From: Candidatus Eiseniibacteriota bacterium
GTDB lineage: Bacteria; Orphanbacterota; Orphanbacteria; Orphanbacterales; Orphanbacteraceae
Direction: 5' to 3'
DNA: 41,182 bases
Assembly: GCA_043809585.1 (NCBI GenBank)
Contig: JBDROZ010000099.1
Location: 1 to 41,182, forward strand
A model generated the notes under the pieces. It was not told where the DNA came from and did not search any database. It was given only the letters and a program-made list of their open reading frames with translations. Below are positions 1-41,111 of the stretch, in pieces. Made by a program: the position numbers and the translations under genes. Every line of letters begins with the position of its first letter. The stretch's first letter is position 1.

Positions 1-250
1 GGTGCTCGTGCCCGCGACGATCCTCGGCACGATCTGGACCTTCAACAACCTGAACGTGATCTGGCTCGTGACGAACCAGGGTGAGCCGGCCGACAAGACC
101 CACATCCTCGTCACCTATGTCTACAAGGCGGCCTTCCACTACTACCGCTACGGCTACGCCGCCGCGTTTTCGCTGGTGATCTTCTTCGTCCTGCTCGCTT
201 TCGTGGTCTGGTTCCTCCGGGTGTCGAGGGAGAAGGAGGGGGCGGTATGA
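1..250 (+). CDS. malF: Sugar ABC transporter permease, MalF-type (3' part only; truncated by window start)
   Basis: IWTFNNLNVIWLVTNQGEP...THILVTYVYKAAF...YGYAAAFS is the typical C-terminus of carbohydrate ABC permease 1; stop overlaps the next ATG (ATGA 247-250). Confidence 0.8.
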   Translation, partial: VLVPATILGTIWTFNNLNVIWLVTNQGEPADKTHILVTYVYKAAFHYYRYGYAAAFSLVIFFVLLAFVVWFLRVSREKEGAV

Positions 251-19085: not shown

Positions 19086-19098
19086 GACCGTCGTCTCC

Positions 19099-25442: not shown

Positions 25443-28400
25443 TCACCGGATCAGGGTGATCTTTCTCGTCGCCGTCTCTCCTCCCGCGCGGAGCCGGACG
25501 AAGTAGATTCCCGAGGCGACCGCGGCCCCCCGGGCGTCGGTGCCGTTCCAGAAGGCGGTCCGGTATCCGGCCGGCACCGGTTCGTCGACGAGGGTCTTCA
25601 CGCGGCGGCCCGTGAGGTCGAAAACGTCGACCGCGGCGTGCGCCGCCGTTCCCGCCCGGCCCGGCACGGTGAATCGGATCGTCGTGGCGGCGTTGAACGG
25701 GTTCGGCGCGTTGCCGAGAAGGGCGAGGGGCGCGGCCATAGGGCCGCCGTCGCCGCGGGCCACGCCCACCGGCTCGTTCGTTGCATCCGGCAGGCCGTCG
25801 CCGTTCCCGTCCACCGTCAAGGTCACGTAGTTGTCGAGATCCGGCGCCGTCGCCGAGATGTTGTCGGGCGCCTGATCGCCGCCGAGTTCGCCGTCCGGCT
25901 CCGGGTCCCAGGTGATCGACGCGACGAGGCTGATCGAGGCGCCGGGGGGCACGTTGCCCGCACCGAGGCCGTAGATGACGTCCCAGGGGATCGCCATCTC
26001 GCTTCCCCCCTCCGTCCCGTAGAAATGCGGGGAGTCGAATGCGGAAACGATGGACCCGCTGAAGTCCTGGGTGGTCGTGTCGCTCGTGATCTTCCAGAAG
26101 CTGTCCGAATCGAACGGGCCCTGGTGCTGGTAGCAGCCGTACTGGAAGTCGGCGGGGAAGGGGAGGTGGGCGCCCCGCTCCCAATGGTCGATCGAGTCGA
26201 GGTCCGACTCGCCGGCCGATCCGCCGGGGTTCGTGTCCAGGTAGAGAAGCCACGAGTTGCCGTGGACCATCCCCTCGATGCCGAGGTAGAGGAAGGTGCC
26301 GTCCCAGGTCATCCAGAGACCGTTGATGTCGTTCGTGTCCCCCGGGGCGGGGGTCGTCCACTGGCTGTCCCAGTCGTCGTTCACGACCCGCATGGCGGAG
26401 GTCCACTCGCCCGGATCGAAGTAGCCGTCGATGGTGATCATCGTCGCCGGCGCCACGGTGATCTGGATGTCGTCCGTGTGATCCTGGGCGTCGTTGCCGT
26501 TCCCCGCCTCGTCCCGCACCGTGTTCGCGGCCAGCATCAGCTCGAGGGTGTTCGGGCTGAGCGCGTCGATCGCCGCCGCCGTCGAGGCGTCGAGGTCGAT
26601 GTCGATCCGGACGCTGTTGTTCACGGTCCTGACCGAGCAGCCCGCCGAGAAGGTCACGTCCGCCGCGCCGTCGTCGTCGTCGTCCACCGAGAAGCCGGTC
26701 ACCGTCACCTGATCGTATTTCACGACTTCGTTGAACCGGATCGAGATCCGGTCGGGAGTCGGGAAGTAGGTCGCGGAGATCGCACCCGGCGCGAGCGTGT
26801 CGGTGAGGGCGGTCGCGAGGGCTTGGAGCTCGGCGACGTTGCCGTTCCCGTCGGGCGGCGCCGTCTCGCCGGCGAAGAGGTACACCTCGAACTGCCCGCT
26901 TCCGAAGATCTCGTCCACGCCGAGCAGGGTCGAGTTGTACTGCAGGTTGAAGCGGGCCCCGCCCCCCCCCACGACCATCGCCGCCGTGGCCCCTGAGTTC
27001 GGGTTCCGCTGGCCGAAGTAGGCCCCCGCGGCGGGCGTCGCCGCCCAGATCCGGTCGCTTTCGGCGTTCCAGATCAGGTCGAGGAGGTCGGGGGAGAAGC
27101 CGCTCTTCATGTAGACATCCTGGCCCCCGGCGTCGTAGATCACGCCGATATGCTTGGCGCCGGACGTCAGGTTCAGCCGCTTCTTCACGTTCGGGTGGAC
27201 CAGGTCGAGGGTGACCGTGCCCCCCGAGCCGGCAACGACGTCGATCGAGTACGTGTCGTGCTCCCGGTCGAGGCCGGCCACGGAGACGTCCGAGAGACCG
27301 CCCGTGTGGTTCCCCTCGTTGTAGTCCCCTTCCGTGTCCGCCCAGTAGACGTTGCAGTTCCCGATCACCGAGTACTCGTCCCCCGCCTCTTGCGCGAAGA
27401 GATAGACGATCCGCCCGCCGATCGGCTCGATCACGGCGAAGAGGTTCTCATTGTAAATGACGCCTTCGTCCTCGCCGTCCTCGTCGATGTCGGAAAGGTA
27501 GGCGCCCGTGGCCGCGGGGTAGTCGCCGTTCGCCCACCGCGACGCCTCCGCGTAGACGTTCGCGTTCTTGATGTGGTTCGAGTAGCGGTAGATCCACCCG
27601 CTGATCTCTCCGTTGTCGTGCCAGCCGGTCTCGTGGAGGTTCGTCATCATCACGTACCACGCCGTTTCGGAGAGGTCGTTCGCGGGGGAGCCCATGATCT
27701 TGTTGTACGTGTTGTTCCAGATCGTCCCGTAGTCCCAGGTCGGCACGTGGAAGTCCCAGACGTGCTGGGGATCGTCGTAGGCCGCCCAGTCGATGTACCA
27801 CGAGTTGTTCCCCCCGCCGTAACCCCACTTGCCGCCCAGAAGCCCGTAGGTCCCGTTCTGGATCGTCGGGTTGTTGGAGCGGAGGAACGCCCCGTGATGG
27901 ATCGCGTCGGAGAGCTTCCAGACCGCCACGGTGCCGCTGTTGATCGAACACTGCTGCAAGACGTTGATCCAGTTGTTGAGGGCCCACGCGTTCGAAGCTC
28001 CTTGGCTCACTTCGGAGGGGATCTCCCAGTCGTTTCCGTAGACCAGGATCTCGTCTGACGAGAGGCCGATGATCATGTTCCACGCCGAGCCCCAGTCGTT
28101 GTCCATGTTCCCCACGAAGTCGCCGTCCATGGGGATGAATTTGAGGCCGCTCGAGTGGATGTAGATATGACGGTCGTCGAAGACGTTGTTGTAGTAGTCG
28201 AGGTGAATGTAGTCGTCGAGCATCACCGCCCGGACGCCGTGGGGAAGCCAGTCGTCGAGCAGGGTGTTGTCGACGACGCCCCCGTCGGCGGCGATCCCGT
28301 TCCCGTCGTTGTCCGGGTTCTCGAGCCAGACCCGCTCCGGCACCCACGCCACCGTCGCCGTGTCGCCGTAACGCCAGTCGGACATCACTTTCTCGATGTT

Positions 28401-29450
28401 CACCGCCCAGTCGTTCATGTCGTCTTGGACGAAGGGCATCATGTGCTGGGCGTAGGCGGACGTGATGATGTCCCCCCATCCGTTCGAGACGGCGGCGGCC
28501 ATGGAATCGTTGAACTCGGGGTTGTGCCACTCCGCCGCGGTCTGGAGCTGCCCGGCGAGGTGCATGTTCAGCGGGATCTGGTAGTACCGGTGGGCGTCCA
28601 GAATCTCGTCGAAGCCGTCGTCGGGGTTGGCGGGGTCACCCGGCCCGGCGGCGTTCTCGCCCCGCTCGCCGTAGAAGACCGTGGTCCACGTGAGCCCCTG
28701 GTTGCCGTGCACCATGAACGCCACGTTGTGATCGCCCGCGAGGGCCCCGTTGTCCGTGACGATGTCGTCGATCATCTCTTCGCCCCGGGCCGTGAAGACG
28801 TAGAAACGGACCGGTGTCGCGTCCCGTGCGGCCAGGGAGGGCGCGATCGTCTCGTAGGAGACGCCCGACTTCCCCGCCGCGGCGAGGGCGGCCTCCTCGA
28901 AGCCGCCGGGGAGCCAGATCTCCCCCTCCACCATATGGTGCCGGGAGGTGACGAGGGCGCTCTTGATCCGCTCCGTCTCGGACGGGTTCATCGAATCGTC
29001 GAGAAGGGCCGCCCGGAGATCACCGCCTTCGTAGCCCAGCCGGAGGACCCGGTCCCAGGCAATCGGCGATTCGCCGGCGATCCCGTCGGGGAGCGCGGTG
29101 GTCCCTCCTTCGAGATAGTCGAGGGCGACGTACAGCCGGACGCCGGAGTCCCGCATCCGGTTCGTTTTGCCGTCGTACGATCCGAGGTCCTTCACCTGGG
29201 CCCGGAAGACGAGACGGTCCGTGTTCTGGTCGTAGTAAAACGCCATCAGATCGCCGCCCCCGGCGTCCGAGCGGACGTCGTAGACCGGATCGAGCGCCCT
29301 CCCATGCTCCGCTCCGTAGAGGGACGGATCCCCGAGCGCCTCGATTCCGGGGGCGGGGACGGCCGGAGGCGACCAGGCGGGGGCGGCGGTCGGAACGAGA
29401 ATCGAAAGGGCGGCGAGGGTTCCGCGAAGGCGGGCGCGGGTCGTCGACAT
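25443..29450 (-). CDS. Secreted multidomain GH57-family glycoside hydrolase with CBM9/DOMON-like domain and FlgD-Ig/T9SS-like CTD (about 1335 aa)
   Basis: Start ATG 29450 with signal peptide; GH57-like regions MVHGNQ, WVPERVW (nucleophile Glu) and YGNDWE (acid/base Asp); C-terminal PNPFNAATTIRF...VFDLTGRRVKTL...SGIYFVRL...KITLIR. Confidence 0.78.
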   Translation of the reverse strand: MSTTRARLRGTLAALSILVPTAAPAWSPPAVPAPGIEALGDPSLYGAEHGRALDPVYDVRSDAGGGDLMAFYYDQNTDRLVFRAQVKDLGSYDGKTNRMRDSGVRLYVALDYLEGGTTALPDGIAGESPIAWDRVLRLGYEGGDLRAALLDDSMNPSETERIKSALVTSRHHMVEGEIWLPGGFEEAALAAAGKSGVSYETIAPSLAARDATPVRFYVFTARGEEMIDDIVTDNGALAGDHNVAFMVHGNQGLTWTTVFYGERGENAAGPGDPANPDDGFDEILDAHRYYQIPLNMHLAGQLQTAAEWHNPEFNDSMAAAVSNGWGDIITSAYAQHMMPFVQDDMNDWAVNIEKVMSDWRYGDTATVAWVPERVWLENPDNDGNGIAADGGVVDNTLLDDWLPHGVRAVMLDDYIHLDYYNNVFDDRHIYIHSSGLKFIPMDGDFVGNMDNDWGSAWNMIIGLSSDEILVYGNDWEIPSEVSQGASNAWALNNWINVLQQCSINSGTVAVWKLSDAIHHGAFLRSNNPTIQNGTYGLLGGKWGYGGGNNSWYIDWAAYDDPQHVWDFHVPTWDYGTIWNNTYNKIMGSPANDLSETAWYVMMTNLHETGWHDNGEISGWIYRYSNHIKNANVYAEASRWANGDYPAATGAYLSDIDEDGEDEGVIYNENLFAVIEPIGGRIVYLFAQEAGDEYSVIGNCNVYWADTEGDYNEGNHTGGLSDVSVAGLDREHDTYSIDVVAGSGGTVTLDLVHPNVKKRLNLTSGAKHIGVIYDAGGQDVYMKSGFSPDLLDLIWNAESDRIWAATPAAGAYFGQRNPNSGATAAMVVGGGGARFNLQYNSTLLGVDEIFGSGQFEVYLFAGETAPPDGNGNVAELQALATALTDTLAPGAISATYFPTPDRISIRFNEVVKYDQVTVTGFSVDDDDDGAADVTFSAGCSVRTVNNSVRIDIDLDASTAAAIDALSPNTLELMLAANTVRDEAGNGNDAQDHTDDIQITVAPATMITIDGYFDPGEWTSAMRVVNDDWDSQWTTPAPGDTNDINGLWMTWDGTFLYLGIEGMVHGNSWLLYLDTNPGGSAGESDLDSIDHWERGAHLPFPADFQYGCYQHQGPFDSDSFWKITSDTTTQDFSGSIVSAFDSPHFYGTEGGSEMAIPWDVIYGLGAGNVPPGASISLVASITWDPEPDGELGGDQAPDNISATAPDLDNYVTLTVDGNGDGLPDATNEPVGVARGDGGPMAAPLALLGNAPNPFNAATTIRFTVPGRAGTAAHAAVDVFDLTGRRVKTLVDEPVPAGYRTAFWNGTDARGAAVASGIYFVRLRAGGETATRKITLIR

Positions 29451-29592
29451 GGAAATACTCCTCACGATGGCGGACAGGGGAGCGGGGTGTAGGGCACACA
29501 CGAGAAACGGTCCGCCGGCCCCCGCCCGGAGCGTGGGAGGGGGCTCCGACGGTCGGCGCGGACCGCGCCCGCATCTTCTAAATAGCGAATTA

Positions 29593-29621
29593 ATTATACC
29601 ATCGCCTCGCCGCCCGATCAA
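29593..29621 (-). promoter_or_regulatory. Sigma70 promoter for the GH57 gene
   Basis: Minus strand TTGATC (29621-29616), 17 nt, TG-G-TATAAT (-10 at 29598-29593); the -35 overlaps the GH13 stop codon. Confidence 0.7.
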
Positions 29622-32257
29622 TCGCTTCCGGCCGACTCGGGGAATGCGAGGACCGCCCCCGCGAAGGGCTCGAGCCGGATCGTGAGCGCGTCCTCTTCGA
29701 AGGCGAGGTCCTGTCCGGCGAAGAGATCCCGGGCCCTCTCCGCGGGGAAGGGGAGGGCCGCCGCCTCGAGGACGATCTCCGCCGGGGCGTTGCCGGCGTT
29801 CAGGATCACCGCGAGCCGGTCGCCTCCCTTCCAGCGGGCGAAGGCGAAGAGATTCCGGTCGGCGAGGAGGGTCCGGAAATCGCCCCGCCGGAGCGCCGGG
29901 TGCTCCCGCCGCATCCCGAGATAATGCCGGATCCGCTCCCGGATCGCCCGGGCCGAGGGCTCCTCGAGTCGCTTCCACCCGAAGGGCCGGCGGCAGTCCG
30001 GGTCGGGCCCGCCCGCCATGCCGATCTCGTCCCCGTAGTAGATGTGGGGCGCGCCGATGTAGGTGACCGAGAAGAGGGTGGCGAGAAGGAGGCGGCGCGT
30101 GTCACCGCCGGCGGACGTGAGGAACCGCTCCGTGTCGTGGGAGCCGAGGAGGTTCATCGCGCCGAGGACCGACGGGAGGGGGTACGAGTACCGCCCGCCC
30201 GCGATTTGGAGGTCGAATGTCCTCGCGTCGATCCGGCTCTGGGCGAAAAAGGCGAGGGCCGGCTCCCGGAAGTACCTGTAGTTCATGGTCGCGTCGAACT
30301 GGAGCGGCGAGAGCTCGCTCGCGGCGTCCCCCCAAAGCTCGGCGATCACGTAGCCGTCGGGCTTCACCTTCCGCACTTCCTCGCGGAAGAGCTTCCAGAA
30401 CCAGGCCGGGACCTCGTTCGCCACGTCGAGCCGGAAGCCGTCCGCCCCCAGGTCGCCGAGCCAGAATCGGACCGTCTCCCGGATCTCTTCGATGACGGGC
30501 CAGTTCGGTTTCGCGTCGGAGACGCGCCGCGCCTCCTGCTCCACCGGGCCGAGGCGGGCGAGGTCGAAGTTCAGGTTCGGAAGGTCGCCGAAGCCCCACC
30601 AGCAGTCGTAGTAGTCGATCGCCTTCTCCGAGGGGCCCCACGATTCGGGGATGGGCCACTTCTTCCACTCGTACCACGTCCAATAGGGGGACTCCTTCCC
30701 CTTCTCCACGCACTCCCGGAAGGCGTAGTGACAATTCCCCGTGTGGTTGAAAACGCCGTCCACGACGATCCTCATGCCCGCCTCGTGGACCGTCTCCGCG
30801 AGTGCCCGGAACGCCTCGTTGCCGCCGAAATGCGGGTCCACCTCCCGGTAATCGCAGGCGTCGTACTTGTGATTCGACTTGGCCGTGTGGAGGGGATTGA
30901 AGTAGAGAATCGTGACCCCGAGGTCCTTCAGGTAGGGGATCATCTCCTGCACGCCTTCGAGATCGCCGCCGTAGAAGGAGAAGTAGTCGGGCCGGCCATC
31001 GGTCCGGTAGGGGCTCTTCTTCAAGCCCTCCACGTCGTACCAATCGTGCACGAGATGGTAGTATTCCCCGTTCGTCGTTCCCGACTCGGGAAGCTCCGTC
31101 TTCCCCGCGTACCAGGGCTCGGAGAAATCGGGGTCGTTCTTCTTGCTTCCGTTCCGGAACCGCTCCGGGAAGATCTGGTAGAAGACTCCGTCCACCACCC
31201 AGTCGGGCATGGAAAAGAGGGGGTTCTGCATCGGCCCGACCGGAATCAGATCCGCGTCCGACGCTTTCTCGGTGAGGCCCGTCCGGGTCATGATCCGCTC
31301 CGCGGAGCCGTCCCGGAAAAGAACCCCGAGCCGCCCTTCCGTTTCGACCGGCATCTCCAGCTCCCCCCGGAAGTAAGTGTAGCGGCCGTCTTCGCCGATC
31401 CCGCGCATGGGAAGACGGGTCTCCTCTCCCCGGCGCCGGAAGAGGAGGGAGGCGCCGGTCACGTCCCCCTGGAAGGCCCGGGCGGTGACCACGAGGCGCT
31501 CCGGTTCGGTCCGCACGATATGGGCGTCGGTCTCCAGATTCAGGGTTCCCTCCCGGATGCTCCCGTCTCCCGCCACGATCGCGACCTTGGGGAAGCGGTC
31601 GTCGACGAGGAGGACCGAATTCAACCCCCCGAACCCGTCGTCGACGGTCCGGTCGTTCTCCGCATCGTGGCGCCAGACGCCGTCGGCGACGAATTTGTAG
31701 AGGACCTCTCCCGGACCGAGGAGAAGGGTGGTGGCGAAGGCCCCCTCCGAGTCGGGGCCGGACATGGGGAGGGCGTCCGGTTTCCACTCGTTGAAAGTCC
31801 CCGCCAGGAAAACCCGGCTCGGGACCGGGTCGCCCCGGAAGAAGAACTTCACTTCCCGCATTTCGGTCCCCGCCGACTTCTTGATCGGGCCGATTCGGTA
31901 GGTCTCCGGCTTCGGTCGCGCGCCGCCGGCGTAGATCACCGAGTTGGCCGATCCGTACGGGTTCGGCGCCGACTCGGAAGCTCCCGGGTCTTCCACCCAA
32001 TCGCCGTCGACGACGAACTTGTACTCGTGACGGCCGGGGGCGAGGTCGAGGGTCGCTTCGAAAATGCCGTTGCCGTCCTCGTCGGTCAGGGCGTCGGCGG
32101 CCGGGTCCCACTGGTTCCAGTCGCCCGCCACGAAGATCTGCTCCGCGTCTTTCCCGGGGGCGTAGCGGAAGGTGACCGGATCCGCAGCGGCGGGCCCGGA
32201 GGCGGCGGCGAGGAGCAGGACGGGAAACAGGGAAAAGAAGAAGGGGCGGACGCGCAT
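29618..32257 (-). CDS. GH13 neopullulanase/cyclomaltodextrinase-like alpha-amylase family enzyme with signal peptide and two N-terminal CBM48-like domains
   Basis: FYQIFPERF, GGDLEGV, SNHKYD, DGVFNH, DGFRLDVANE (nucleophile), AELW (acid/base), GSHD, YYGDEIGM; two GxWN/FNxW...YKFVxDGxW..D modules. Confidence 0.92.
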   Translation of the reverse strand: MRVRPFFFSLFPVLLLAAASGPAAADPVTFRYAPGKDAEQIFVAGDWNQWDPAADALTDEDGNGIFEATLDLAPGRHEYKFVVDGDWVEDPGASESAPNPYGSANSVIYAGGARPKPETYRIGPIKKSAGTEMREVKFFFRGDPVPSRVFLAGTFNEWKPDALPMSGPDSEGAFATTLLLGPGEVLYKFVADGVWRHDAENDRTVDDGFGGLNSVLLVDDRFPKVAIVAGDGSIREGTLNLETDAHIVRTEPERLVVTARAFQGDVTGASLLFRRRGEETRLPMRGIGEDGRYTYFRGELEMPVETEGRLGVLFRDGSAERIMTRTGLTEKASDADLIPVGPMQNPLFSMPDWVVDGVFYQIFPERFRNGSKKNDPDFSEPWYAGKTELPESGTTNGEYYHLVHDWYDVEGLKKSPYRTDGRPDYFSFYGGDLEGVQEMIPYLKDLGVTILYFNPLHTAKSNHKYDACDYREVDPHFGGNEAFRALAETVHEAGMRIVVDGVFNHTGNCHYAFRECVEKGKESPYWTWYEWKKWPIPESWGPSEKAIDYYDCWWGFGDLPNLNFDLARLGPVEQEARRVSDAKPNWPVIEEIRETVRFWLGDLGADGFRLDVANEVPAWFWKLFREEVRKVKPDGYVIAELWGDAASELSPLQFDATMNYRYFREPALAFFAQSRIDARTFDLQIAGGRYSYPLPSVLGAMNLLGSHDTERFLTSAGGDTRRLLLATLFSVTYIGAPHIYYGDEIGMAGGPDPDCRRPFGWKRLEEPSARAIRERIRHYLGMRREHPALRRGDFRTLLADRNLFAFARWKGGDRLAVILNAGNAPAEIVLEAAALPFPAERARDLFAGQDLAFEEDALTIRLEPFAGAVLAFPESAGSD

Positions 32258-32311
32258 GGCTCACTCCTTAGTATGGGGTCGGTCACGGGACCGGGCCGAT
32301 CGTGCGCCCGT

Positions 32312-32340
32312 ATCGTACCCCCCCCGGACGCCCCGCTCAA
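32312..32340 (-). promoter_or_regulatory. Divergent promoter (leftward, GH13)
   Basis: Minus strand TTGAGC (32340-32335), 17 nt, TACGAT (32317-32312). Confidence 0.5.
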
Positions 32341-32354
32341 GAGGGCGGTAGCCC

Positions 32355-32384
32355 TTGACGGACCGAAGGGGGCGCTGATATCCT
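32355..32384 (+). promoter_or_regulatory. Divergent promoter (rightward, outer-membrane operon)
   Basis: TTGACG (32355-32360), 18 nt, TG-A-TATCCT (-10 at 32379-32384). Confidence 0.5.
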
Positions 32385-32425
32385 CTCGCACCGAAAGACG
32401 GAATCGACCCACCGGTGGAGATTCG

Positions 32426-33742
32426 ATGACTGCGAAGACCCTCTGCCTTGTCCCGGCGGTCCCCGCGTTCTCCCTGCTCGCGGCCCTCTTGTGGCCCGCT
32501 TTGACGGCCGCCGAAACCGCCCCGGATCTCTCGGACCGCATCGTGATCGACGGATACTCCTCGGATTTCGCCGAGGACGAGGCGGTGTTCGTGGACACCC
32601 TGATCGACGTGAACGGCGACGGGGTGCCCGAAGCGGTCTCCCAGGAGAGGGACAACGACTCGAAGTGGGGGTTCAACAACGACATCAACCAGATCAAGAT
32701 CACCTGGGACGCGGAGAACCTGTACGTCGCCGTCGACGGGATCTCGTGGGACAACAACATCATCCTCCTGTTCGACTATCTCCCCGGCGGCCTCGACCGG
32801 ATGACGGAGCTGAACTCGTGGCGGCGGAACTTCGTCTTCGCCGGCAACTTCTTTCCCGATCTCTTCCTCGCCACATGGGACGGCAACACGACCCCCCAGA
32901 TCTGGCGCTACGCGAACGAGAATCAGGTGACCCAGGTCGACATCTCCCTCTTCGAGACGGTGGCCACCTTCGCCCAGGGGAACCCGGGGCGGTCCATGGA
33001 GGCCCGGATTCCGTGGACCGTGTTCTACGGCCGGAAGCTCGACCGGCGTTACAGCGCGGAGATCCGCGACTCGGTCTACGTGCTGCCCGCCGGCCTCGAT
33101 CCATCCCGCTCGATCCGCGTCTGTGCGATTCTGACGGCGGGGGGGGACGGCACGGGGGGGCCCGATTCCGCGCCCGACAATCTGGGGGGGCACAACATCG
33201 AATCCTCGTTCCAGGTGGTGATCGACAACTTCGCGATCGTGCCCCTCGACACCACCTACTACATGACCTCCACCGGGCGGCGCGTCTATGACTGGGAAGA
33301 GGGGGTCGCGGATACGGTTTCCGCCGACGGTTCGCCCGATCTCGGGGTGGGCATCTCCGAGAGGCGTGCGTTCTTCATCGTCCCGCCGGTGATCCCGAAG
33401 AACTTCACCTTCAGTGATCTCCGTTTCGAGCGACCCGTCATCTCCCCCGAGCGGGGGGAGTTCCTTCGATTCGACTTCCGGTTTTCCCCCGAGCCGGATA
33501 CGCTCGACTTCTTCCGGTTCGTCCGGGTGAGCGCCGAGATCTATGATCTCCGCGGGGAGCGGGTCCGGGTGCTCTACCGGGACGACGCGAGGAGCGCCAT
33601 CTCTCCCGTCGATCCGGGACGGGACTTCTGGGACGGCCGGGACGAGAGCGGACGGTTCGTGCCCGGGGGGATCTACCTGCTTCGCTTCGTGGTGGAGCCC
33701 GGGGTCTTCCGCACGACGAAAGGGTTCTCGGTGGTCCGATGA
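32426..33742 (+). CDS. Exported protein: CBM9/DOMON-like domain plus atypical FlgD-Ig/T9SS-like C-terminal domain
   Basis: GGAG RBS, ATG 32426, signal peptide; IVIDG...DINQIKITWDAENLYVAVDG...MEARIPW; C-terminal AEIYDLRGERVRVL...WDGRDESGRFVPGGIYL...FSVVR. Confidence 0.68.
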   Translation: MTAKTLCLVPAVPAFSLLAALLWPALTAAETAPDLSDRIVIDGYSSDFAEDEAVFVDTLIDVNGDGVPEAVSQERDNDSKWGFNNDINQIKITWDAENLYVAVDGISWDNNIILLFDYLPGGLDRMTELNSWRRNFVFAGNFFPDLFLATWDGNTTPQIWRYANENQVTQVDISLFETVATFAQGNPGRSMEARIPWTVFYGRKLDRRYSAEIRDSVYVLPAGLDPSRSIRVCAILTAGGDGTGGPDSAPDNLGGHNIESSFQVVIDNFAIVPLDTTYYMTSTGRRVYDWEEGVADTVSADGSPDLGVGISERRAFFIVPPVIPKNFTFSDLRFERPVISPERGEFLRFDFRFSPEPDTLDFFRFVRVSAEIYDLRGERVRVLYRDDARSAISPVDPGRDFWDGRDESGRFVPGGIYLLRFVVEPGVFRTTKGFSVVR

Positions 33743-34623
33743 AGAGAACCGTCTGCGTAGCGATTCTCGCCCTGGCCTTCGCAGGTCCGGCGTGGTCCTA
33801 CTTCGACCGGCTCGAAGTGGGGAGCCGCGCCCTCGCCATGGGCAAGGCGTTCCACGCCATCGCCGACGATCCGTCGGCGGTCTACTGGAACCCGGCCGGT
33901 TTCGGCTGGCAGCGGCGGAACCAGGCCCTCTTCGCCCACTACCGCCCCTATGTGGTGGAGGACCTTTCCGTCAACTTCGCGGCCCTCACCCTCCCGGTGC
34001 CGAAGAGGATCGGCACACTGGGGCTCGGCTGGCACCACACGGGCCTCGCGGACGTGGTCTCCGAGGACCTCTTCTTCTTCTCCCTCGGGCGCCGGTCCTC
34101 CCTCCCCGCCGTGGGGGACGTCGGCGTCGGCGTCACGGGAAAGATTTTCCGCGTCGGCTACCAGAACTTCACCGACCTCGAGACCCTGGAAGAAGTCGAC
34201 TACGGATCTCAGACGAAGTTCGCCGTCGACGTCGGCGCCATCGTCCAGCCGACCGACCTCATCCGGGTCGGCCTGATCGTCCGAAATATCGGCGAGCCGG
34301 AGTTCGACTTCGTGAGCGGGAACGGAGGCACCCGCATGGAGGCGGAGGCGGAAGGGTCCGTGAGCTACCGCTGGAACGAGGCGTCCCTCGTCTCCGCCGG
34401 GTTCGCCCGGGACCGGCGGGGGGACTACCGGCCGATGGCGGGGGGGGAGGTGACGTTCTTCGACGTCTTCGCCCTCCGGAGCGGCGTTTTCGATTACGAG
34501 TTCTGGGGGGGATTCGGCATCCTCACGGGTTCCTGGTTCTTCGACGCCGGATTCAACACGCACAAGGACCTCGGCGTCTCCTACATGGCGTCCGTCACGG
34601 TCCCCTTCGGGAGGGAGCGATGA
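33739..34623 (+). CDS. PorV/PorQ-family (FadL-like) outer-membrane beta-barrel protein
   Basis: GSRALAMGKAFHAIADDPSAVYWNPAG signature; amphipathic beta-strands; ATGA overlaps at both ends. Confidence 0.8.
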   Translation: MKRTVCVAILALAFAGPAWSYFDRLEVGSRALAMGKAFHAIADDPSAVYWNPAGFGWQRRNQALFAHYRPYVVEDLSVNFAALTLPVPKRIGTLGLGWHHTGLADVVSEDLFFFSLGRRSSLPAVGDVGVGVTGKIFRVGYQNFTDLETLEEVDYGSQTKFAVDVGAIVQPTDLIRVGLIVRNIGEPEFDFVSGNGGTRMEAEAEGSVSYRWNEASLVSAGFARDRRGDYRPMAGGEVTFFDVFALRSGVFDYEFWGGFGILTGSWFFDAGFNTHKDLGVSYMASVTVPFGRER

Positions 34624-36146
34624 GACGGTTCGCGGCCCCCGTCGTCCTCCTGACCTTGCTCGTTCCCTGTCTCGCCGGGGCGGTCACCCGGATCGAGGGG
34701 GAGTACCAGCTCCAGCTCGACATCCGGAAACAGGATCGCAATTTCCCGTGGGACTTCGAGTCGAACAACAACGATACTTACGCGGCGAGCCAGTTCCGCA
34801 TCTTCACCGCCCCCCGGTCGGGGGTGGAGGCGTTCGTCAAGGTCGAAGCGGACTGGTACACCGGGGGGAACGAGAACGACCGGCCCCAGTACCATTACCG
34901 GGAATCGCACATGCGCTTCTTCAAAGAGTTCGGCGCCGGAAAGCCGATCGCCGAGGCGTACCTCTTCTCCCGGCAGGACCGTTTTTGGGTCGAGAACCAC
35001 CTGATCGGCGTGGTTCAGACCGATCCGGCGAAGGACGGGGACAACGCCCAGGGTGTGCGGTTCAATCTGAAGAACGGCCGGTGGGAGGATGTCCTCTCCT
35101 ACATCTACAGCGATTTTTCGAGCCAGTCCCGGGTCGGCGGGGAAACGCCGCCCCCCCGCTCGGACGACGCCCACATCTTCCGTTTCCGCCCGGTTCTCAC
35201 CGAGAGGACGCGTCTCGGGACCACCTACAACCGGAAGGTGGAAGCCCAGGACGGAGAGATGGGCTACAACGAAGTGTACGCCTTCGACGGGCGCTACACG
35301 TTCGGAAACAACATCGACTTCTACCTCGAGTACGCGAGCAGCAAGCGGCGGGGCCCGGCGGCCCAAGACGAGGACGGCTTCCACCTGGGCGACTGGGAGG
35401 TCGACCGGTTCGCGGCCGCCCTCCCGCGAAACGCCGCATTGAAGGCCGAACTTCGATCGATCAGTGTCGGCACGCCGACCCTCGGCTACTACAACATCGC
35501 GCCTCTCTACTACTACTTCGGTCCCGACTTCTCCGACTACCTCGGGGAGAGCACCAATGACCTGGTCGGCTGGAAGCTGAACACCTGGTACCTGCTGCCG
35601 AAGCGGGCGATCACCGTCTCCCTCGACTACGAGGAGTGGGAGAGATACGTGTTCGAGCAGAAGACCTTCACCAAGTGGCGCGCCGAGATCTACACGGAGT
35701 ACGTGAACGGGTTCACGAGCAAGATCTGGTACGACCGGAACCGCACCGTGGACACGAGCAACCCGTTCTTCGACGAGATCACGAAGAACTACGACCTCTT
35801 CGCCGAGGTCCAGGTGGAGAGCCGTCTCGCCTGGATGCGGGTGCAGGGGAAGCTGAAGGATCTCGAAACGGACCTCAAGAAGGAGCTCGTCTCCCTCGAG
35901 ACGGCGGTGAACATCACCGACAGGCTCAAGATCTACAGCCGGTACGCCTTCGGCAACGACCCGGCGAGGCTCAGGAAGGGGCTCTTCTCGGAGCTCCAGT
36001 ACCGGCCCCAGCAGAACATGGAACTTTTCCTTTCCTACGGCCCGTTCTGGATCGGCGACGACGCCGTCCCGGTGAACGACGGCGACCTCGCCGGCGGGGC
36101 CGACAACAAGGACATGATCCGGTTGATCGTGAAAGGCAATTTCTAG
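34620..36146 (+). CDS. Putative outer-membrane beta-barrel protein of unknown family
   Basis: Signal peptide MRRFAAPVVLLTLLVPCLAGA; aromatic-rich alternating strands; C-terminal beta-signal DMIRLIVKGNF. Confidence 0.72.
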   Translation: MRRFAAPVVLLTLLVPCLAGAVTRIEGEYQLQLDIRKQDRNFPWDFESNNNDTYAASQFRIFTAPRSGVEAFVKVEADWYTGGNENDRPQYHYRESHMRFFKEFGAGKPIAEAYLFSRQDRFWVENHLIGVVQTDPAKDGDNAQGVRFNLKNGRWEDVLSYIYSDFSSQSRVGGETPPPRSDDAHIFRFRPVLTERTRLGTTYNRKVEAQDGEMGYNEVYAFDGRYTFGNNIDFYLEYASSKRRGPAAQDEDGFHLGDWEVDRFAAALPRNAALKAELRSISVGTPTLGYYNIAPLYYYFGPDFSDYLGESTNDLVGWKLNTWYLLPKRAITVSLDYEEWERYVFEQKTFTKWRAEIYTEYVNGFTSKIWYDRNRTVDTSNPFFDEITKNYDLFAEVQVESRLAWMRVQGKLKDLETDLKKELVSLETAVNITDRLKIYSRYAFGNDPARLRKGLFSELQYRPQQNMELFLSYGPFWIGDDAVPVNDGDLAGGADNKDMIRLIVKGNF

Positions 36147-36157
36147 GAGTGGATCCC

Positions 36158-38362
36158 ATGAGATCGACGTTGGCACGAACGGCAGTGACGCTCCTCGCCC
36201 TCATCACGGCGATCTCCGCGGCCGAAGCCGGTGTGGAGGCCGTGGAGGGGGGGATCCGCTTCACGTACGAGGACGCCTATGCGACCCGGGTCTCCCTCGC
36301 GGGGGTCTTCAACAACTGGAGCGCCACCGCGAACCCCATGACGAAAGAGGACGGGGTCTGGACGATCACGGTCGCACTCGGTCCGGGGAAGCACGAGTAC
36401 AAGTTCGTGGTGGACAACCAGTGGATCGCCGACCCCGACAACCCGGTCACGGCCGGCGAGTACGGCAACTCGGTGGTGAACGTCGGCCCGGACGGCGACA
36501 TCGTCGCCATGGCCGCCACGTCGAACACGGCGTATTCGGCGAAGATCCTCCTCGGCGGGAGGATGATCAGCCGCTTCATCAGCCGTCAGAACTCAGGCCG
36601 GGGGGACCGGTACGAGCTCGAGCGCCCGACGATGGACCTCGATCTCGACTGGAAGATCCGGGCGAACGACTACCTCGACCTCCACATGATCACGACGATC
36701 AACAACGAGAACGAGGAGGCGGTGACCGACTTCTGGAAGACGAGCCTCCACTTCGACCGCGGATCGGTCCTCTTCCACAAGAACGAGTTCCGTCTTCTCA
36801 TGTTCGACAACGAGTCGGCGGGCGTCTTCGACGACCCCCTCCGTCTCGTCGGCGACATCGGGATCTATCATCACGACTTCGGATTCCGGCAGCAGGGCGC
36901 CCGGGCCGACTACTCCTGGAAGGGCGTCGACATGGCGCTGCTCTACTCCGACGACTTCCAGAACGGAGGGACCTTCGGGAGCACGGTGGATTCCCTGGGT
37001 GTGGTGAGCATTGGAGCCGTGTTCGACAGCGCCAAGTCCACGTACCGGATCTGGAGAAGTGAAGTCGCGAACTACCAAGTGTCCGACACGGACAACGACA
37101 AGGACGTGCTCGCCTTCCGGGCGAAGTTACCGGCGATCAGGGACATCCGGGTCGGCACGTCCTGGCGGTTCGACCGGGGCTACAACCCCGGGTTTCTCTC
37201 GACGATCGAGGCGGACGGAGAAGACTCGACCATGACCCGAGGGGTCTACCGTCTCTTCGGTGAGACATGGGAACGATGGTGGGGGGGAGGCGCGGACCTC
37301 GCCGCCGGCGGCCTCGAGAAGCCGTGGAGCTTGAGGGCCGAGGTCCTCGTGGGGCGGGCCGAGATCGATGCCATGGCCGGCGGCGAGATGGACGTGCTGG
37401 TCGAGACGGCGGTGACGTACGACACGCTGGAGGTCACGGCCCGGGACACCCTCGTGGACACCCTGTACATGCCGGTCCTGACAGGTGTCTCGGACCCGAG
37501 GCAGATCGACGACAGGAGTTTCGATGTCGACCGGTCGGAGCGCTATCTCCTCGGAGGCGACATCCGCCTGGACGGCCTCGGCATGAAGCTCTCCGCCGAT
37601 TGGGAGAGGGAGACCCACGAGCAGGGCTTCTACGCCACGGGCCTCTGGGACACCCTGGAGAACTCGCTGGACATCTACCGGCTCGGCGTGAGCAAGAGAG
37701 TGGAGAGCTTCCTCGGCCGCCCGTGGGGTCTCGCACTGGAGACGGAGGTCTACGACTTCGATTACGACCCCGAGACCCCGTGGCGGAACCAGTTCTGGTT
37801 CGACACCCGAAACTTCTGGCTCGAGCAGAGCGAGCACGAGGTTTCCGTGGATCGCATGGTCCTCTTGGGCGGGCGGAACGCCTCCTTCGTGAAGCCCGTC
37901 CTGACGACCACGCTCTGGGCTGCCCACGACCTCGAGTTCACCTGGCGGGGGAATTTCGCCGGGGTCGACCTGGACAAGGACCCGAAATACACGGAGAATC
38001 TCTTCCAGTTGGAGGCCCGGCCGTGGAAAAAGGTCCGCCTCTACTCGGACACCAGGCTCGTCAAGTACAACGACCCCGTCCTCGCCATCTTCGGATCGTG
38101 GTGGTCCACCTTCGCCGAGGCGGCGTACGAGGTGGCCGAAGGGATCGAGGTCTCTCTCTCCTACGGGGTCGACCCCTTCATCGTCGACGAGACCACCAAC
38201 GAGTTCGACGCCATCGGCCGGGATCTCTTCCTCTTCGAGCGGGGCGCCAACGGAGACGTGGCCCGGCGGAGCTTCTCCGGTCTGGGCACGGCCATTCCGG
38301 AGGCGGAGCAGGCCCTCGAGGACGAGAGGCGGATCCAGATCGAAGGGATCGTAAGGTTCTAG
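36158..38362 (+). CDS. CBM48-like glycogen-binding domain fused to a putative outer-membrane beta-barrel
   Basis: Signal peptide; RVSLAGVFNNWS...M...GVW...LGPGKHEYKFVVDNQWIADPDNP...GEYGNSVV; long aromatic beta-rich region ending RRIQIEGIVRF. Confidence 0.75.
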   Translation: MRSTLARTAVTLLALITAISAAEAGVEAVEGGIRFTYEDAYATRVSLAGVFNNWSATANPMTKEDGVWTITVALGPGKHEYKFVVDNQWIADPDNPVTAGEYGNSVVNVGPDGDIVAMAATSNTAYSAKILLGGRMISRFISRQNSGRGDRYELERPTMDLDLDWKIRANDYLDLHMITTINNENEEAVTDFWKTSLHFDRGSVLFHKNEFRLLMFDNESAGVFDDPLRLVGDIGIYHHDFGFRQQGARADYSWKGVDMALLYSDDFQNGGTFGSTVDSLGVVSIGAVFDSAKSTYRIWRSEVANYQVSDTDNDKDVLAFRAKLPAIRDIRVGTSWRFDRGYNPGFLSTIEADGEDSTMTRGVYRLFGETWERWWGGGADLAAGGLEKPWSLRAEVLVGRAEIDAMAGGEMDVLVETAVTYDTLEVTARDTLVDTLYMPVLTGVSDPRQIDDRSFDVDRSERYLLGGDIRLDGLGMKLSADWERETHEQGFYATGLWDTLENSLDIYRLGVSKRVESFLGRPWGLALETEVYDFDYDPETPWRNQFWFDTRNFWLEQSEHEVSVDRMVLLGGRNASFVKPVLTTTLWAAHDLEFTWRGNFAGVDLDKDPKYTENLFQLEARPWKKVRLYSDTRLVKYNDPVLAIFGSWWSTFAEAAYEVAEGIEVSLSYGVDPFIVDETTNEFDAIGRDLFLFERGANGDVARRSFSGLGTAIPEAEQALEDERRIQIEGIVRF

Positions 38363-38369
38363 GAGGCGA

Positions 38370-38795
38370 GTGGTGAGCTCGGGGATTTTGAGATCGAGAT
38401 GGATCCGCGGCGCGGCGATCGCGTGGGCCGTGATCGGGCTCTCCGGGTGCGGGGGGCTCTCCTTCGTCAAACGGCGCCTTCCTCCCCCCTACGCCGTGGA
38501 GGAGGGGGTCCTCTTCCAGTTCGAGGCCCCCTCGGCCCAGCGGGTGCAGCTCGCCGGCAACTGGCCGGACAACAATTGGCTCCGGGGCCGGGCGGAAACG
38601 GGGAGCTATCTGATCGGCCTGATGGAGGATCCGGACAAGGACGGCATTTGGACCCTCGTGGTCGAGCTCCCGCCGGGCAGGTACCAGTACAAGTTCGTGG
38701 TCGACGAACACACCTGGAAAGAAGATCCGAACAACCCTCAGCGGGTGAATGACGGTTATGGAGGAAACAACTCCCTCCTCGTCGTGGACCGGTAG
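38370..38795 (+). CDS. Small lipoprotein consisting of a CBM48/AMPK-beta-like glycogen-binding domain
   Basis: Lipobox LSGC; VQLAGNW...M..PDKDGIW...LPPGRYQYKFVVD...W..DPNNP...DGYGGNNSLL. Confidence 0.85.
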   Translation: MVSSGILRSRWIRGAAIAWAVIGLSGCGGLSFVKRRLPPPYAVEEGVLFQFEAPSAQRVQLAGNWPDNNWLRGRAETGSYLIGLMEDPDKDGIWTLVVELPPGRYQYKFVVDEHTWKEDPNNPQRVNDGYGGNNSLLVVDR

Positions 38796-38807
38796 GAGAG
38801 TGATCTG

Positions 38808-41111
38808 ATGAGACGAAGAGCCACGGGATGGGCGGTCTTCGGCGTCGTCGCCCTCGTGATCCTGGCGGCGGCCGTTCGATGCGGCGACAACCTGAACTAT
38901 CCTCTCCTCGATCCTTCGACGGGGACGCCGAACGCCATCGTCGCGGAAGGCGTACTGTCGGGGGTCCTCTTCTGGGGCGACGGGGCGCCCGCCCCCCCCT
39001 ATCCGACAACCGTGGTCTACGCCCTCCGGAGCTACGATGACTCCTGCACGGGCGGTCCGACCTCGATCCACGTGACCGGCGTGTACAATGGCTGGGACAC
39101 GAGCACGTGGGAATCGGAGCCGGGCATGACCGAGATCTTCCCCTGCTATTGGGTGGAGGCGATCGACCTGGCCCCCGAAGAGCAGTTCGCGTGGAAGTTC
39201 GTCACTAGCAAGTCGTGGGACGGCAGTTACGCGAGCGGCGGAGGCTCGGTGGACGCGACCGCCCGCCGGGGAACCACGACGCCGGACAACGGCGGAGATC
39301 TTCAGGTGTCCATCCCGTCGGCGGGCGAATACTGGTTCCTGCTCAACGCTTCGGGCAGTCCGGGGCTTTTCCAGATCGCGACCGGAGAGGAGGTCCCCTG
39401 GGACACGACGGGGGGAAGCCGGGATTCGTTCTCCATCGACAACCTCGAATCGGGTCTCTACACGCTGGTCATCCACGTGCCCGACGGGGAGGAGGACTTT
39501 CCCGTCAGCTATCGGAGGATCCGCATCTCCGGCGACCAGGGGGTCGATCTGGGCGTCGTCCGAGTCATCCTGACCGGCGAGATCCGGGGGACGCTCGCCT
39601 TCGCCGACTCTCCGCCCGCGACGCCGCCGGCCGAGATCTACGTCTCCGTCTCCTCCACGGGAGTCCCGGTCGACACCGTCTCGCTCGACGCCGGGGAGAC
39701 GGAGTTCTCCCTCACGTCCCTTCTCGAAGACGAGTACGACCTCTGGATTCACACGGCGAGCTACGTGGACACGGTTCTCACCGATGTCGAGTTCGTTCTG
39801 GGCCGGGAGATCGACCTCGGCACGATCACCCTCGCCCGGGGGGGCGCCGTGAGCGGCACCGTCGCTCTGTCGGACGATCCGGGCAGCCGGCCGGCAATCT
39901 CCGTCTTCTACGAGAACCCGGCCACGGGGGACCGTCTCGCGCGGACCGTCGCCGACGGGTCGGACGGATCGTTCCTCCTGGACGGCGTGCCGCCCGGGCT
40001 CCGGGAGATCGGTTTCGAGGCCCGGAGATACCGGGACACGACTCTCGTCGACGTCGTGATCGCGGCCGCGGAGACCACCGATGTCGGCACGGTCACCCTC
40101 GACCCCGGCTGCGTGAGCGTGGCGACGACGATTCACCTGCTCGGCGAGTTCAACGGCTGGAACGAGGGGCTCTTCAACTCCGATCCGGGGATGATCCAGT
40201 CGGAGAGCTGCCTCTGGCGGGACACGGTGGACCTGTTCCCATCCATCCTCCCCGATCCGGAGTTCAAGTTCGTGACCGACAAGGCGTACGCCAGTCCGCC
40301 GGACTACGGTCTCTGTGACGGCGCGGCGTACGGTTCCCTCACGGGGCCGATCTGCCTCATCGGGCCGGGGCCCCCCCTGAACCTCGTCCTCACGGATGCC
40401 GGCACACCGGGGAGGTACGCCTTCAAGCTCGACGAGGACTCGCTGATCTATCGCGCGACGCTTCTCGAGGAGTTCACCGGGAGCGTCACCGGGACGATCG
40501 CCTATGACACCGGCCTCCTGCCCCCCTTCCCGGCGGCATCGGTCACGGCGAAGCGGGCGAGTGATTCCCTCGTCCTCGCGACCGTCTCGATCGACCCGGG
40601 CACGGGCGCCTTCGCCGTGACCGGGCTTCCCGGCGGAACGTTCATCGTCGAGATCTCGGGGTCGAATTTCCGGGACACGCTGTTCACCGGCATCGTCGTG
40701 CCCGACGGCGGGGCCGTCGACCTCGGCACGATCACGGTGACCGAGGTGGTCTTCCAATCGGAATTCACCGTCATCCGCGTGGTCGGGGACTTCAACAACT
40801 GGGACGTCGGCCGGCCGAGCATGAAACAGATCGAACCGGGCGTTTGGGTCGACACGATCACGGTCGCGGCGAGGCCGCCGGACAACTGCCACTTCATGAA
40901 ATTCCGCACCGCGAACGACTGGGGGGCGAACGACTACCACAACTGCGGAGACCAAGACAACACCTGCTCCGCGCCCCTCACGGGACCGGTCTGCACGAAC
41001 ACCGGCAACAGCGATCCGCCGGCGCTCGGCAAGATGCGCCTCGATCCGGGCACCTACGAGTTCCGACTGGACGAGGTGAACCGCACCTACGCGGTCACTC
41101 TGATCCCGTAG
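38808..41111 (+). CDS. Modular lipoprotein with three SusE/SusF-like starch-binding modules and carboxypeptidase-regulatory-like spacers
   Basis: Signal ending AAVRC; modules IHVTGVYNGWD..M..W..WKFVT, IHLLGEFNGWN..M..W..FKFVT and IRVVGDFNNWD..M..W..MKFRTANDWG; spacers GxxxGTx...GxFxxxGxPxG...YxDT. Confidence 0.68.
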   Translation: MRRRATGWAVFGVVALVILAAAVRCGDNLNYPLLDPSTGTPNAIVAEGVLSGVLFWGDGAPAPPYPTTVVYALRSYDDSCTGGPTSIHVTGVYNGWDTSTWESEPGMTEIFPCYWVEAIDLAPEEQFAWKFVTSKSWDGSYASGGGSVDATARRGTTTPDNGGDLQVSIPSAGEYWFLLNASGSPGLFQIATGEEVPWDTTGGSRDSFSIDNLESGLYTLVIHVPDGEEDFPVSYRRIRISGDQGVDLGVVRVILTGEIRGTLAFADSPPATPPAEIYVSVSSTGVPVDTVSLDAGETEFSLTSLLEDEYDLWIHTASYVDTVLTDVEFVLGREIDLGTITLARGGAVSGTVALSDDPGSRPAISVFYENPATGDRLARTVADGSDGSFLLDGVPPGLREIGFEARRYRDTTLVDVVIAAAETTDVGTVTLDPGCVSVATTIHLLGEFNGWNEGLFNSDPGMIQSESCLWRDTVDLFPSILPDPEFKFVTDKAYASPPDYGLCDGAAYGSLTGPICLIGPGPPLNLVLTDAGTPGRYAFKLDEDSLIYRATLLEEFTGSVTGTIAYDTGLLPPFPAASVTAKRASDSLVLATVSIDPGTGAFAVTGLPGGTFIVEISGSNFRDTLFTGIVVPDGGAVDLGTITVTEVVFQSEFTVIRVVGDFNNWDVGRPSMKQIEPGVWVDTITVAARPPDNCHFMKFRTANDWGANDYHNCGDQDNTCSAPLTGPVCTNTGNSDPPALGKMRLDPGTYEFRLDEVNRTYAVTLIP

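Follow-up and report, generated by a model that had tools for sequence, protein, structure and literature searches.

Among the closest described counterparts of the locus analysed here are two routes by which bacteria take up alpha-glucans: the Sus system of Bacteroides (SusA-G), with its SusCD utilisomes, and the enterobacterial maltoporin LamB, a barrel of 18 strands, which works with the MalEFGK importer. CymA, a further route, is a small monomeric channel of 14 strands. In the parts of the sources that deal with them, CymA of Klebsiella oxytoca is described as a cyclodextrin channel on a route that is neither Sus nor LamB (PMC8608610), and MalA of Caulobacter crescentus as a SusD-less, plugged TonB receptor that moves maltodextrins and has no ABC partner (PMC11658791). 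We examined contig C99 of a Candidatus Eiseniibacteriota genome (G000, 97% complete); the entire contig, 41,182 nt, is referred to here as the window. Our subject is a run of six rightward genes, g1 to g6, of which the first five form a core: g1 (C-terminal domain (CTD) protein), g2 (PorV-like barrel), g3 (orphan barrel), g4 (a barrel fused to the carbohydrate-binding module CBM48) and g5 (CBM48 lipoprotein). An earlier note on this DNA had presented these genes and two leftward enzyme genes as a 'third' outer-membrane architecture for alpha-glucans, which is overstated, as CymA and MalA already move such glucans. We consider it rather probable that the cassette in the window, five outer-membrane genes in a form linked to alpha-glucans, fulfils the role of SusCDEF by means of unrelated components.

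Results

Conservation of the core and its linkage to alpha-glucan genes

Gene order around g3 was compared in 74 loci, kept from the best 80 of 124 g3 relatives, and was counted only where the contig allowed the test. Beside g3, g1 was in place at 62 of 62 testable loci, g2 at 66 of 67, g4 at 68 of 68 and g5 at 62 of 62. Where at least 9 kb could be read on both sides (36 loci), a gene for a glycoside hydrolase (GH) of family GH13 or GH57 was present at 28, a Mal-type ABC transporter gene at 29, either at 35 and both at 22. The cassette is conserved across at least four phylum-level groups, and its gene order and its linkage with alpha-glucan enzymes and a Mal-type transporter, on which the earlier proposal depended, hold across the window's relatives. 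The homologues carry the source labels Ca. Eisenbacteria, Latescibacterota or Krumholzibacteriia.

g3 has a patchy distribution, being present in 48/151 and 21/151 genomes of two phyla and in 8/10 of the window's group, and it almost always occurs as a single copy. A MalG orthologue (E up to 1e-60) was detected in 30 of 32 g3-positive genomes from the two phyla versus 3 of 40 g3-negative ones, the latter being the first 20 listed of each phylum search and the relatives not being independent. G000 itself carries a malK-malE-malF-malG run on contig C76, for which the best NCBIfam models are MalE, MalF and MalG, all under cut-off, and whose sugar specificity is a prediction. The earlier note had also pointed to MalFG permease genes at the start of the window. 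These are present, but 24 kb of unrelated genes separate malF-malG from the cassette, and the functional link is drawn from the relatives rather than from the window. A divergent lineage has a single run that comprises, in order, a gene for a Glucodextran_C+CTD protein, g2, g3, g4, a double-CBM48 g5, a CBM48-GH57-Glucodextran_C enzyme gene, malE, malF and malG; it is complete at one locus (L100), and two others (L099, L103) are alike save for masked or truncated ends. There, the Glucodextran_C+CTD protein replaces g1 and the enzyme comes from another family, but the barrels and the importer are retained. Nine metagenomic loci from a g3 subfamily of ~25% identity retain the core as far as their contigs reveal it, with sugar ABC genes at four (L110, L113, L115, L117). 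In a tree of 43 g3 sequences, built by a quick method for which long-branch joining is flagged and from which no direction of evolution is claimed, the window copy groups with Eisenbacteria-labelled, mal-linked copies, and copies from a divergent cassette form (type II, see below) fall on long branches. Judged by these relationships, the window copy is well placed among alpha-glucan loci.

SusCD, LamB and TonB receptors

Profile searches agreed with the earlier statement that neither SusC/SusD nor LamB is recognisable. Of 40 cassette-bearing genomes, G000 among them, 0 matched SusD (PF07980, a single model) and 0 matched LamB (PF02264); the positive controls were B. thetaiotaomicron for SusD and E. 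coli for LamB. A SusC/SusD pair directly downstream, which the earlier note had named as a possible refutation, is contradicted by the SusD result in those 40 genomes, though the contig ends. None of g2, g3 and g4 matched the TonB plug or receptor families (PF07715, PF00593), and none of G000's nine matches to Plug and eight to PF00593 falls on them, so the barrels match neither LamB nor TonB receptors. TonB-like genes stand beside the cassette at 1 of 124 loci.

The window does contain a TonB-dependent receptor gene followed by one for a DUF4249 lipoprotein (18189-21321, minus strand). We considered this pair as the missing SusC/D and rejected it: no homologue occurs among 1468 genes called in the 124 loci. 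Elsewhere in G000, an ABC transporter, GH1, GH94, LacI and a TonB receptor are encoded close together (L142; G000:C50:18000-37999). This locus likely serves beta-glucoside use, in which case a TonB route would coexist for another glycan.

The two large barrels

AlphaFold2 modelled g3 as a barrel only, over residues 22-508 (pLDDT 92.8; 114 aligned sequences), and g4 as a barrel from residue 129 (pLDDT 89.3; 58 aligned sequences). Counted from the secondary-structure lists of the models, g3 has 24 predicted strands and g4 has 22 after the CBM48. The best fold match of g3 is the PapC usher (Z 16.4, root-mean-square deviation (rmsd) 5.8, 368 aligned residues, 6% identity), with FimD also found; that of g4 is the FyuA barrel (Z 15.3, rmsd 7.0, 398 aligned, 12% identity), with which porins tie. 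On these models, the matches are generic, by strand number only, and point to no specific relative, a lack that is no evidence on the novelty of either fold. An atlas search with g3 returned two unnamed clusters of its own family and then DUF6029 (0.96; TM 0.71). The DUF6029 barrels are thus the nearest named match, but g3 and its distant homologues have no PF19494 match by hidden Markov model. With 182 clusters at 50%, the g3 family is a small one, and Pfam matched neither g3 nor 79 of 80 distant members, the exception being a CsgG fusion (P0278, a g3 homologue with an N-terminal CsgG-like domain). We also considered g3 and g4 as paralogues, which was not established, since hhalign gave a probability of 13.5% over the C-terminal 61 columns only.

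In g3, the conserved positions cluster in extracellular loops 1, 3 and 12 (the last); in g4, they cluster in loop 3, the last loop and an aromatic-rich loop (536-573). Such a pattern is as expected for predicted loops that line a pore or an interface. The fusion of CBM48 to the g4 barrel is kept in 55 of the 58 homologues listed; a g4 homologue without CBM48 was seen at L117 (10476-12140). An even-stranded outer-membrane barrel begins on the periplasmic side. Because the CBM48 of g4 precedes strand 1 of a barrel modelled as even-stranded, it most likely faces the periplasm or the lumen and is unlikely to be a surface capture domain. The sole pairing folded as a complex, g4 (25-734) with g5 (27-141), scored 0.00 and gave no answer.

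CBM48 domains and lipoproteins

Pfam recognised AMPK1_CBM/CBM48 twice in the GH13 enzyme, once in g4 (E 4.5e-16) and once in g5 (E 1.6e-8). The family matches and the conserved Trp/Lys/Trp/Asn identify these as CBM48/AMPK glycogen-binding domains, and we take these four residues to be the equivalents of the binding residues of AMPK. In g5, W70, K108, W116 and N134 are invariant in 53 sequences, and the aromatic and basic residues of the CBM48 are invariant in g4 as well. The g6 lipoprotein has three copies of a ~115-aa module, of which its orthologues have 1-6. The earlier note had labelled these modules SusE/F-like; the three repeats stand, but the label fits them loosely, as the members of the module family match X25 (19/89), AMPK1_CBM (10/89) and SusF_SusE (1/89) (under cut-off), and the module profile matches BT3088 SGBPdex, a Bacteroides surface glycan-binding protein (SGBP), at E 4.7e-5 and, weakly, X25/CBM48-type domains.

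Parts resembling the type IX secretion system

No Pfam or NCBIfam model matched g1 itself, but FlgD_ig was found in 33 of 55 orthologues and Por_Secre_tail in 12 of 55. Residues 1026-1335 of the GH57-like protein are 24% identical to g1, and the N-terminal domain of g1 is common to both proteins. Described earlier as a CBM9-like protein with a CTD, g1 retains the CTD-like end through its orthologues; the CBM9-like part is a lead, as the N-terminal domain matched nothing in Pfam or the Protein Data Bank (PDB) and its atlas neighbours (scores 0.89-0.90) carry CBM9_1 in 30-35% of members. Against NF033709, which has a cut-off of 90 bits, g2 scored 59 bits (E 5e-16) and an orthologue 69 bits (E 5e-19). 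The SprA translocon gene was detected in G000 over cut-off, together with 111 CTD proteins by profile count and many PorV-like genes. GldM/PorM gave no match by profile search, nor did any control genome.

A CTD-like gene directly followed by a PorV/PorQ-like barrel gene, in a genome with SprA, resembles the cargo-shuttle pairs of type IX secretion (T9SS; type A CTD/PorV, type B CTD/PorP-SprF), although g2 is under the PorV family cut-off and the pair here lies within a glycan locus. Pairs of genes for a CTD protein and its cognate shuttle are known, and the relevant section of PMC12618676 describes PorP/SprF-like shuttles that anchor cognate CTD cargo. In a passage of PMC11285876, T9SS-like genes are suggested for other phyla of the Fibrobacterota-Chlorobiota-Bacteroidota (FCB) group.

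Alpha-glucan enzymes

The GH57-like protein scored 16.5 bits against PF03065, for which the Pfam cut-off is 21.2, and matched 1k1w, a 4-alpha-glucanotransferase, at E 0.021. A PERVW-type motif is present in 12 of 12 members of its cluster and G[NDT]DWE in 11 of 12. Its C-terminus is over cut-off for FlgD_ig and for TIGR04183 (29.7 vs 23). Of the secreted GH57-CTD protein proposed earlier, the CTD was therefore upheld, and the GH57 match is under the Pfam cut-off. This gene occurs at 6 of 36 fully flanked loci and g6 is variable, which makes both accessory rather than parts of the core.

The GH13 enzyme matched PF00128 at E 6e-58, and the catalytic-region motifs RLDVANE, AELW and SHDT are all there; its best NCBIfam models, NF008051 and NF041090, are both under cut-off. 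Since it has a signal peptide without a CTD or lipobox, it is probably periplasmic, with a putative SusA-like role. Further proteins that appear related to alpha-glucans are encoded elsewhere in G000 (labels partly by eye): an exported, CBM48-first GH57-looking protein (C61:19194-21803), a pullulanase-looking protein (C84:28437-31772), a GH13 with a CTD (C43:7896-10949), a recurring CTD protein beside malK (C76:50464-52497) and a lone g6-type module (C58:1939-2892).

Gene layout and surroundings of the cassette

The eight genes, their tight packing (gaps of -4, -4, 11, 7 and 12 nt from g1 to g6), the export-type N-termini, the four CBM48 domains and the three repeated modules that had been reported for the window were all confirmed (Table 1). 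A basic-then-hydrophobic N-terminus is present on 8 of 8 products, and a lipobox-like Cys on g5 (LSGC) and g6 (AVRC), as judged by a hydropathy and regular-expression check rather than SignalP. Of the back-to-back promoters proposed earlier, the rightward one is fair (TTGACG-18-TATCCT, 32355-32384; 9/12 positions, 1 found vs 0.1 expected by shuffling), and the leftward one is weak (TTGAGC-17-TACGAT, 32340-32312; 8/12, not called by the promoter scanner). In a metatranscriptome (X1), 0.06 of words matched, and 4 short contigs were 99-100% identical to the locus (GH13, g4 and across g5-g6), which is not proof of transcription.

Table 1. Positions of the cassette genes and associated features in the window.
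Feature	Positions	Strand	Length	Description
malF 3' end and malG	2..1077	+		NF008231 MalG E 2e-53, under cut-off
GH57-like enzyme	25443..29450	-	1335 aa	exported; DOMON-like domain; C-terminal type A-like CTD; accessory
CBM48x2-GH13	29618..32257	-	879 aa	maltodextrin glucosidase/cyclomaltodextrinase-like; signal peptide, no CTD, no lipobox
Divergent promoter-like region	32312..32384	both		rightward site fair, leftward weak
g1	32426..33742	+	438 aa	exported; N-terminal DOMON/CBM9-like domain (lead only); FlgD/CTD-like C-terminus; core
g2	33739..34623	+	294 aa	PorV/PorQ-like outer-membrane barrel; core
g3	34620..36146	+	508 aa	orphan beta-barrel; no plug domain; C-terminal Phe; core
g4	36158..38362	+	734 aa	N-terminal CBM48 (~residues 25-112) fused to orphan barrel; core
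g5	38370..38795	+	141 aa	single-CBM48 lipoprotein; conserved basic tether after Cys; core
g6	38808..41111	+	767 aa	lipoprotein; three SusE/F/X25-like modules with carboxypeptidase-regulatory Ig domains between them; variable

Contig C99 stops after a final GAGGAGG, with no sequence readable beyond it in the window. At L023, the closest relative that has flanking sequence, the genes next after g6 are one of 321 aa with no Pfam match and one for an M36/MAM peptidase. Because a 41% homologue of that 321-aa gene starts contig C15 of G000, where a 975-aa gene comes next, C15 may be the continuation of the cassette contig. At the other end, window positions 1-2170 near-duplicate G000:C76:55800-58185 (92% then 82% nucleotide identity) over the malF-malG-phosphoesterase end, with malK and malE also on C76; this would be either a duplication or two strains in the assembly. 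The genes between malG and the cassette (3140-24036) include those for MsrB, an ice-binding-like adhesive domain, an Lcl repeat protein, DinB, DUF3298, DUF480, DUF4197, a CTD metallophosphoesterase, a GIY-YIG exonuclease-like protein, an fn3 lipoprotein, an RRM protein and a cupin. A Na/Pi cotransporter gene follows at 24134-25348.

Type II cassettes and other evidence against an uptake function

Several observations weigh against a role of the cassette in alpha-glucan uptake, most of them from the type II cassette, a divergent Krumholzibacteria-type form (the phylum of G315) that was matched in 65 of 151 genomes, 23 of them strongly. Its g3 is homologous over the full length to the window g3 (hhalign 99.8%), and the cassette is intact. 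Among 12 neighbourhoods read, two were mal-linked and ten had g2-g3-g4 beside DUF4388, nine of the ten also with ppdK; at these ten type II loci, g1 is absent in three and g5 in one. With G412 set aside, the other 22 of the 23 strongly matching genomes had the GH13 domain of the window in 0/22, a MalG orthologue in 0/22 and GH57 in 4/22. Five type II genomes (three of them single-contig, though with some masked stretches) gave PF00128 in 0/5, GDE_C in 0/5 and phosphorylase in 1/5, with one full and one partial copy of glycogen synthase. By these profile searches, from which GH15/31/63/65/77/97 were left out, type II genomes are without recognisable alpha-glucan catabolism. The sole similar sugar ABC transporter of these genomes sits with murQ/anmK. 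Its permease (31-36%) was considered as a maltose importer and rejected, since at 4 of the 5 loci read its neighbours are murQ-like, anmK, SpoIID and GH3 genes.

What type II cassettes adjoin instead is, at 8 of 10 loci (L125, L127-L132, L136), a gene for a giant Big_1/Invasin-repeat protein that follows the cassette. CBM48-like domains in type II genomes also occur on ParA and other non-starch proteins. The linkage with alpha-glucan enzymes, although upheld for the window's relatives, is thus not general, as a homologous cassette persists without such catabolism in type II. Because type II cassettes persist without the GH13 or a MalG orthologue, the core is not tied to alpha-glucan catabolism in every lineage and may do something broader. 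Three further points tell against uptake through the cassette. TonB receptors were found in all 36 genomes tested, so another entry route for maltodextrins is possible; in G003 (L029 3425-7543), genes for a TonB receptor, of a non-Sus kind, and a beta-helix lipoprotein lie directly upstream of g1 on the same strand; and the nearest fold of g3, generic as the fold matches are, is a protein-secreting usher.

Type II genomes have further features of their own. The giant Ig-repeat protein reaches 5,663 aa and has a CTD-like end, with its own PorV-TPR fusion next and anti-sigma-type regulators (L154 2666-19657; L155 1-14367). The second lipoprotein of type II keeps the CBM48 Trp/Lys/Trp, and the g4 CBM48 is without the second Trp in several. 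ParA/MinD-type ATPases with a C-terminal CBM48 were seen at L150 5150-6286, L151 6937-8034 and L153 6286-7362, and two small CBM48 proteins behind an apparent gene for an extracytoplasmic function sigma factor (label by eye) at L152 5325-7887. An unlinked exported protein of ~900 aa with a C-terminal CBM48 turned up in all 5 of the type II genomes tested (L145 8350-11121, L146 7993-10761, L148 5166-8003, L149 5901-8594), and a search of G000 did not find it. We considered this protein as another alpha-glucanase that might supply the missing catabolism of type II; one of four scanned had a weak MGH1-like GH match, and no catalytic-domain match was found in the PDB. One genome, G382, carries both cassette types.

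Discussion

In its predicted workings, the cassette resembles a Sus locus coupled to the Mal importer of enterobacteria, but it belongs to neither system. As in Sus, one locus combines outer-membrane barrels, predicted glycan-binding lipoproteins, a predicted surface amylase and a neopullulanase-like GH13. Glycoside hydrolases are co-localised (GH13 and GH57 in the window; 28 of 36 flanked loci), and the g6 modules loosely resemble SGBP modules (BT3088). The predicted 22 strands of g4 match the strand number of SusC, as given in a section of PMC12611786. Unlike Sus, the cassette has no SusD, plug or TonB-receptor match, and it has two large barrels besides a PorV-like one, a CBM48 fused to a barrel, a CTD rather than a lipoprotein amylase, and an ABC transporter for the inner-membrane step. 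With the LamB route it has in common a MalEFGK-like importer, a maltodextrin-glucosidase-like GH13 and a probably passive outer-membrane step, but it is without LamB, its barrels have a predicted 24 and 22 strands, and it has dedicated CBM48 partners and T9SS-like parts. CymA and MalA, which we set apart by their descriptions rather than by sequence comparison, both lack CBM48 fusions. No description of the cassette was found in the literature searched, the coverage of which leaves out most subscription journals and supplements. Section 7 of PMC8542988 treats Cloacimonadota GH57, a Mal transporter and a cellulosome-like complex without describing the cassette, and the cassette is likewise not described in passages of PMC13264449. 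The cassette is real, conserved and, it appears, undescribed; it is a locus for glycan utilisation assembled from new barrel families, and its function is predicted.

On balance, we favour the cassette as a SusCD- and LamB-independent module for maltodextrin capture and uptake. Of the alpha-glucan uptake proposed earlier, feeding a periplasmic GH13 and an ABC transporter, the genes, synteny and co-occurrence are in evidence, and from them we infer transport itself. In such a scheme, CTD amylases (the GH57-like enzyme here, others elsewhere in G000) would exit via SprA and cut starch or glycogen outside the cell. The polymer would be bound by g1, held at the surface by the neighbouring PorV-like g2, and by the variable lipoprotein g6. 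Maltodextrins, which may be branched or cyclic and exceed what a maltoporin of 18 strands could admit, would then cross through g3 and/or g4, predicted plug-less barrels whose lumen the conserved loops would narrow. On the periplasmic side, the CBM48 domains of g4 and g5 could trap the product, which would provide directionality without TonB. The periplasmic CBM48x2-GH13 would trim the maltodextrin and MalEFGK import it, a coupling suggested by co-occurrence. Within this scheme, we lean towards an outer-membrane step that is passive or sink-driven.

The alternative that survives best, although we think it considerably less probable than uptake, is a surface scaffold for alpha-glucan binding or sensing, such as adhesion to starch or glycogen particles or to the glucan of other cells. 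The barrels would anchor g1, g5 and g6, sugars would enter through other porins or TonB receptors, and catabolic genes would have been recruited beside the cassette in some lineages and an adhesin in others. This would explain why type II genomes keep CBM48 residues in their second lipoprotein yet are without alpha-glucan catabolism, and why a giant Ig-repeat CTD protein stands at 8 of 10 of their loci. There is precedent for anchoring: part of PMC12611786 describes FadL-family barrels that can anchor surface lipoproteins (BamG-BamH), and the PorP/SprF-like shuttles discussed above (PMC12618676) hold their cognate cargo. However, barrels of 24 and 22 strands would seem to exceed by far what an anchor needs, the co-occurrence with MalG and the single run with malEFG fit transport, and the long-branched g3 of type II may be derived.

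We regard it as improbable that g3 (and g4) are usher- or Slam-like pores that export or assemble lipoproteins of the g5/g6 type or proteins with Ig repeats, and that would help the starch enzymes in an indirect way. The top folds of g3 are indeed the 24-strand ushers PapC and FimD, the partners are Ig-fold proteins, and type II cassettes adjoin Ig-repeat proteins. Yet the identity is 6-8% and the rmsd 3.6-5.8, other barrels follow within 1-3 Z units, and g3 has no plug, no periplasmic N- or C-terminal usher domains and no usher Pfam match, with no chaperone or pilin genes among the recurring neighbours. In addition, G000 already has SprA for CTD proteins, and a PorV-like neighbour of its own accompanies the giant protein. 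Slightly less probable still is that g4 is a highly diverged TonB-dependent transporter, in which CBM48 takes the place of the plug and g3 and g5 are accessories to energised uptake. Its 22 strands, a globular N-terminal domain at the plug position, a TonB receptor barrel as top fold and TonB receptors in 36 of 36 genomes would suit such a role, but g4 matched neither PF07715 nor PF00593, porins tie FyuA in Z, TM-scores are 0.2-0.4, the L117 homologue has no CBM48, and a TonB-like gene adjoins the cassette at a single locus. Chance clustering of unrelated exported proteins, for which the wealth of CTD and PorV-like genes in G000 might speak, is most improbable and is refuted by synteny across at least four phylum-level groups.

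Beyond the favoured uptake module, we put forward a bolder view tentatively, and rather doubt it as a whole. In this proposal, g3 and g4 would represent a new class of outer-membrane channels for glycans, large and plug-less, complexed with the PorV-like barrel, a CTD lectin on a tether and lipoproteins with CBM48, in which a periplasm-facing CBM48 gate or sink replaces TonB energisation. Across FCB-related candidate phyla, the whole might be an ancient substitute for SusCD that one clade, where catabolic enzymes are missing, has redeployed to sense alpha-glucan or to control adhesion.

Diderm glycan degraders are usually recognised by SusC/SusD or known porins, and lineages with the cassette would therefore be scored as having no outer-membrane polysaccharide uptake. 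The cassette could serve as a marker for starch or glycogen use in uncultured genomes labelled Eisenbacteria, Krumholzibacteria, Cloacimonadota and Marinimicrobia. It also adds two new large barrel families with confident models, which bear on how large glycans may pass an outer membrane when no TonB plug is involved. A second question, beside that of uptake, is raised by type II as the enzyme-free form.

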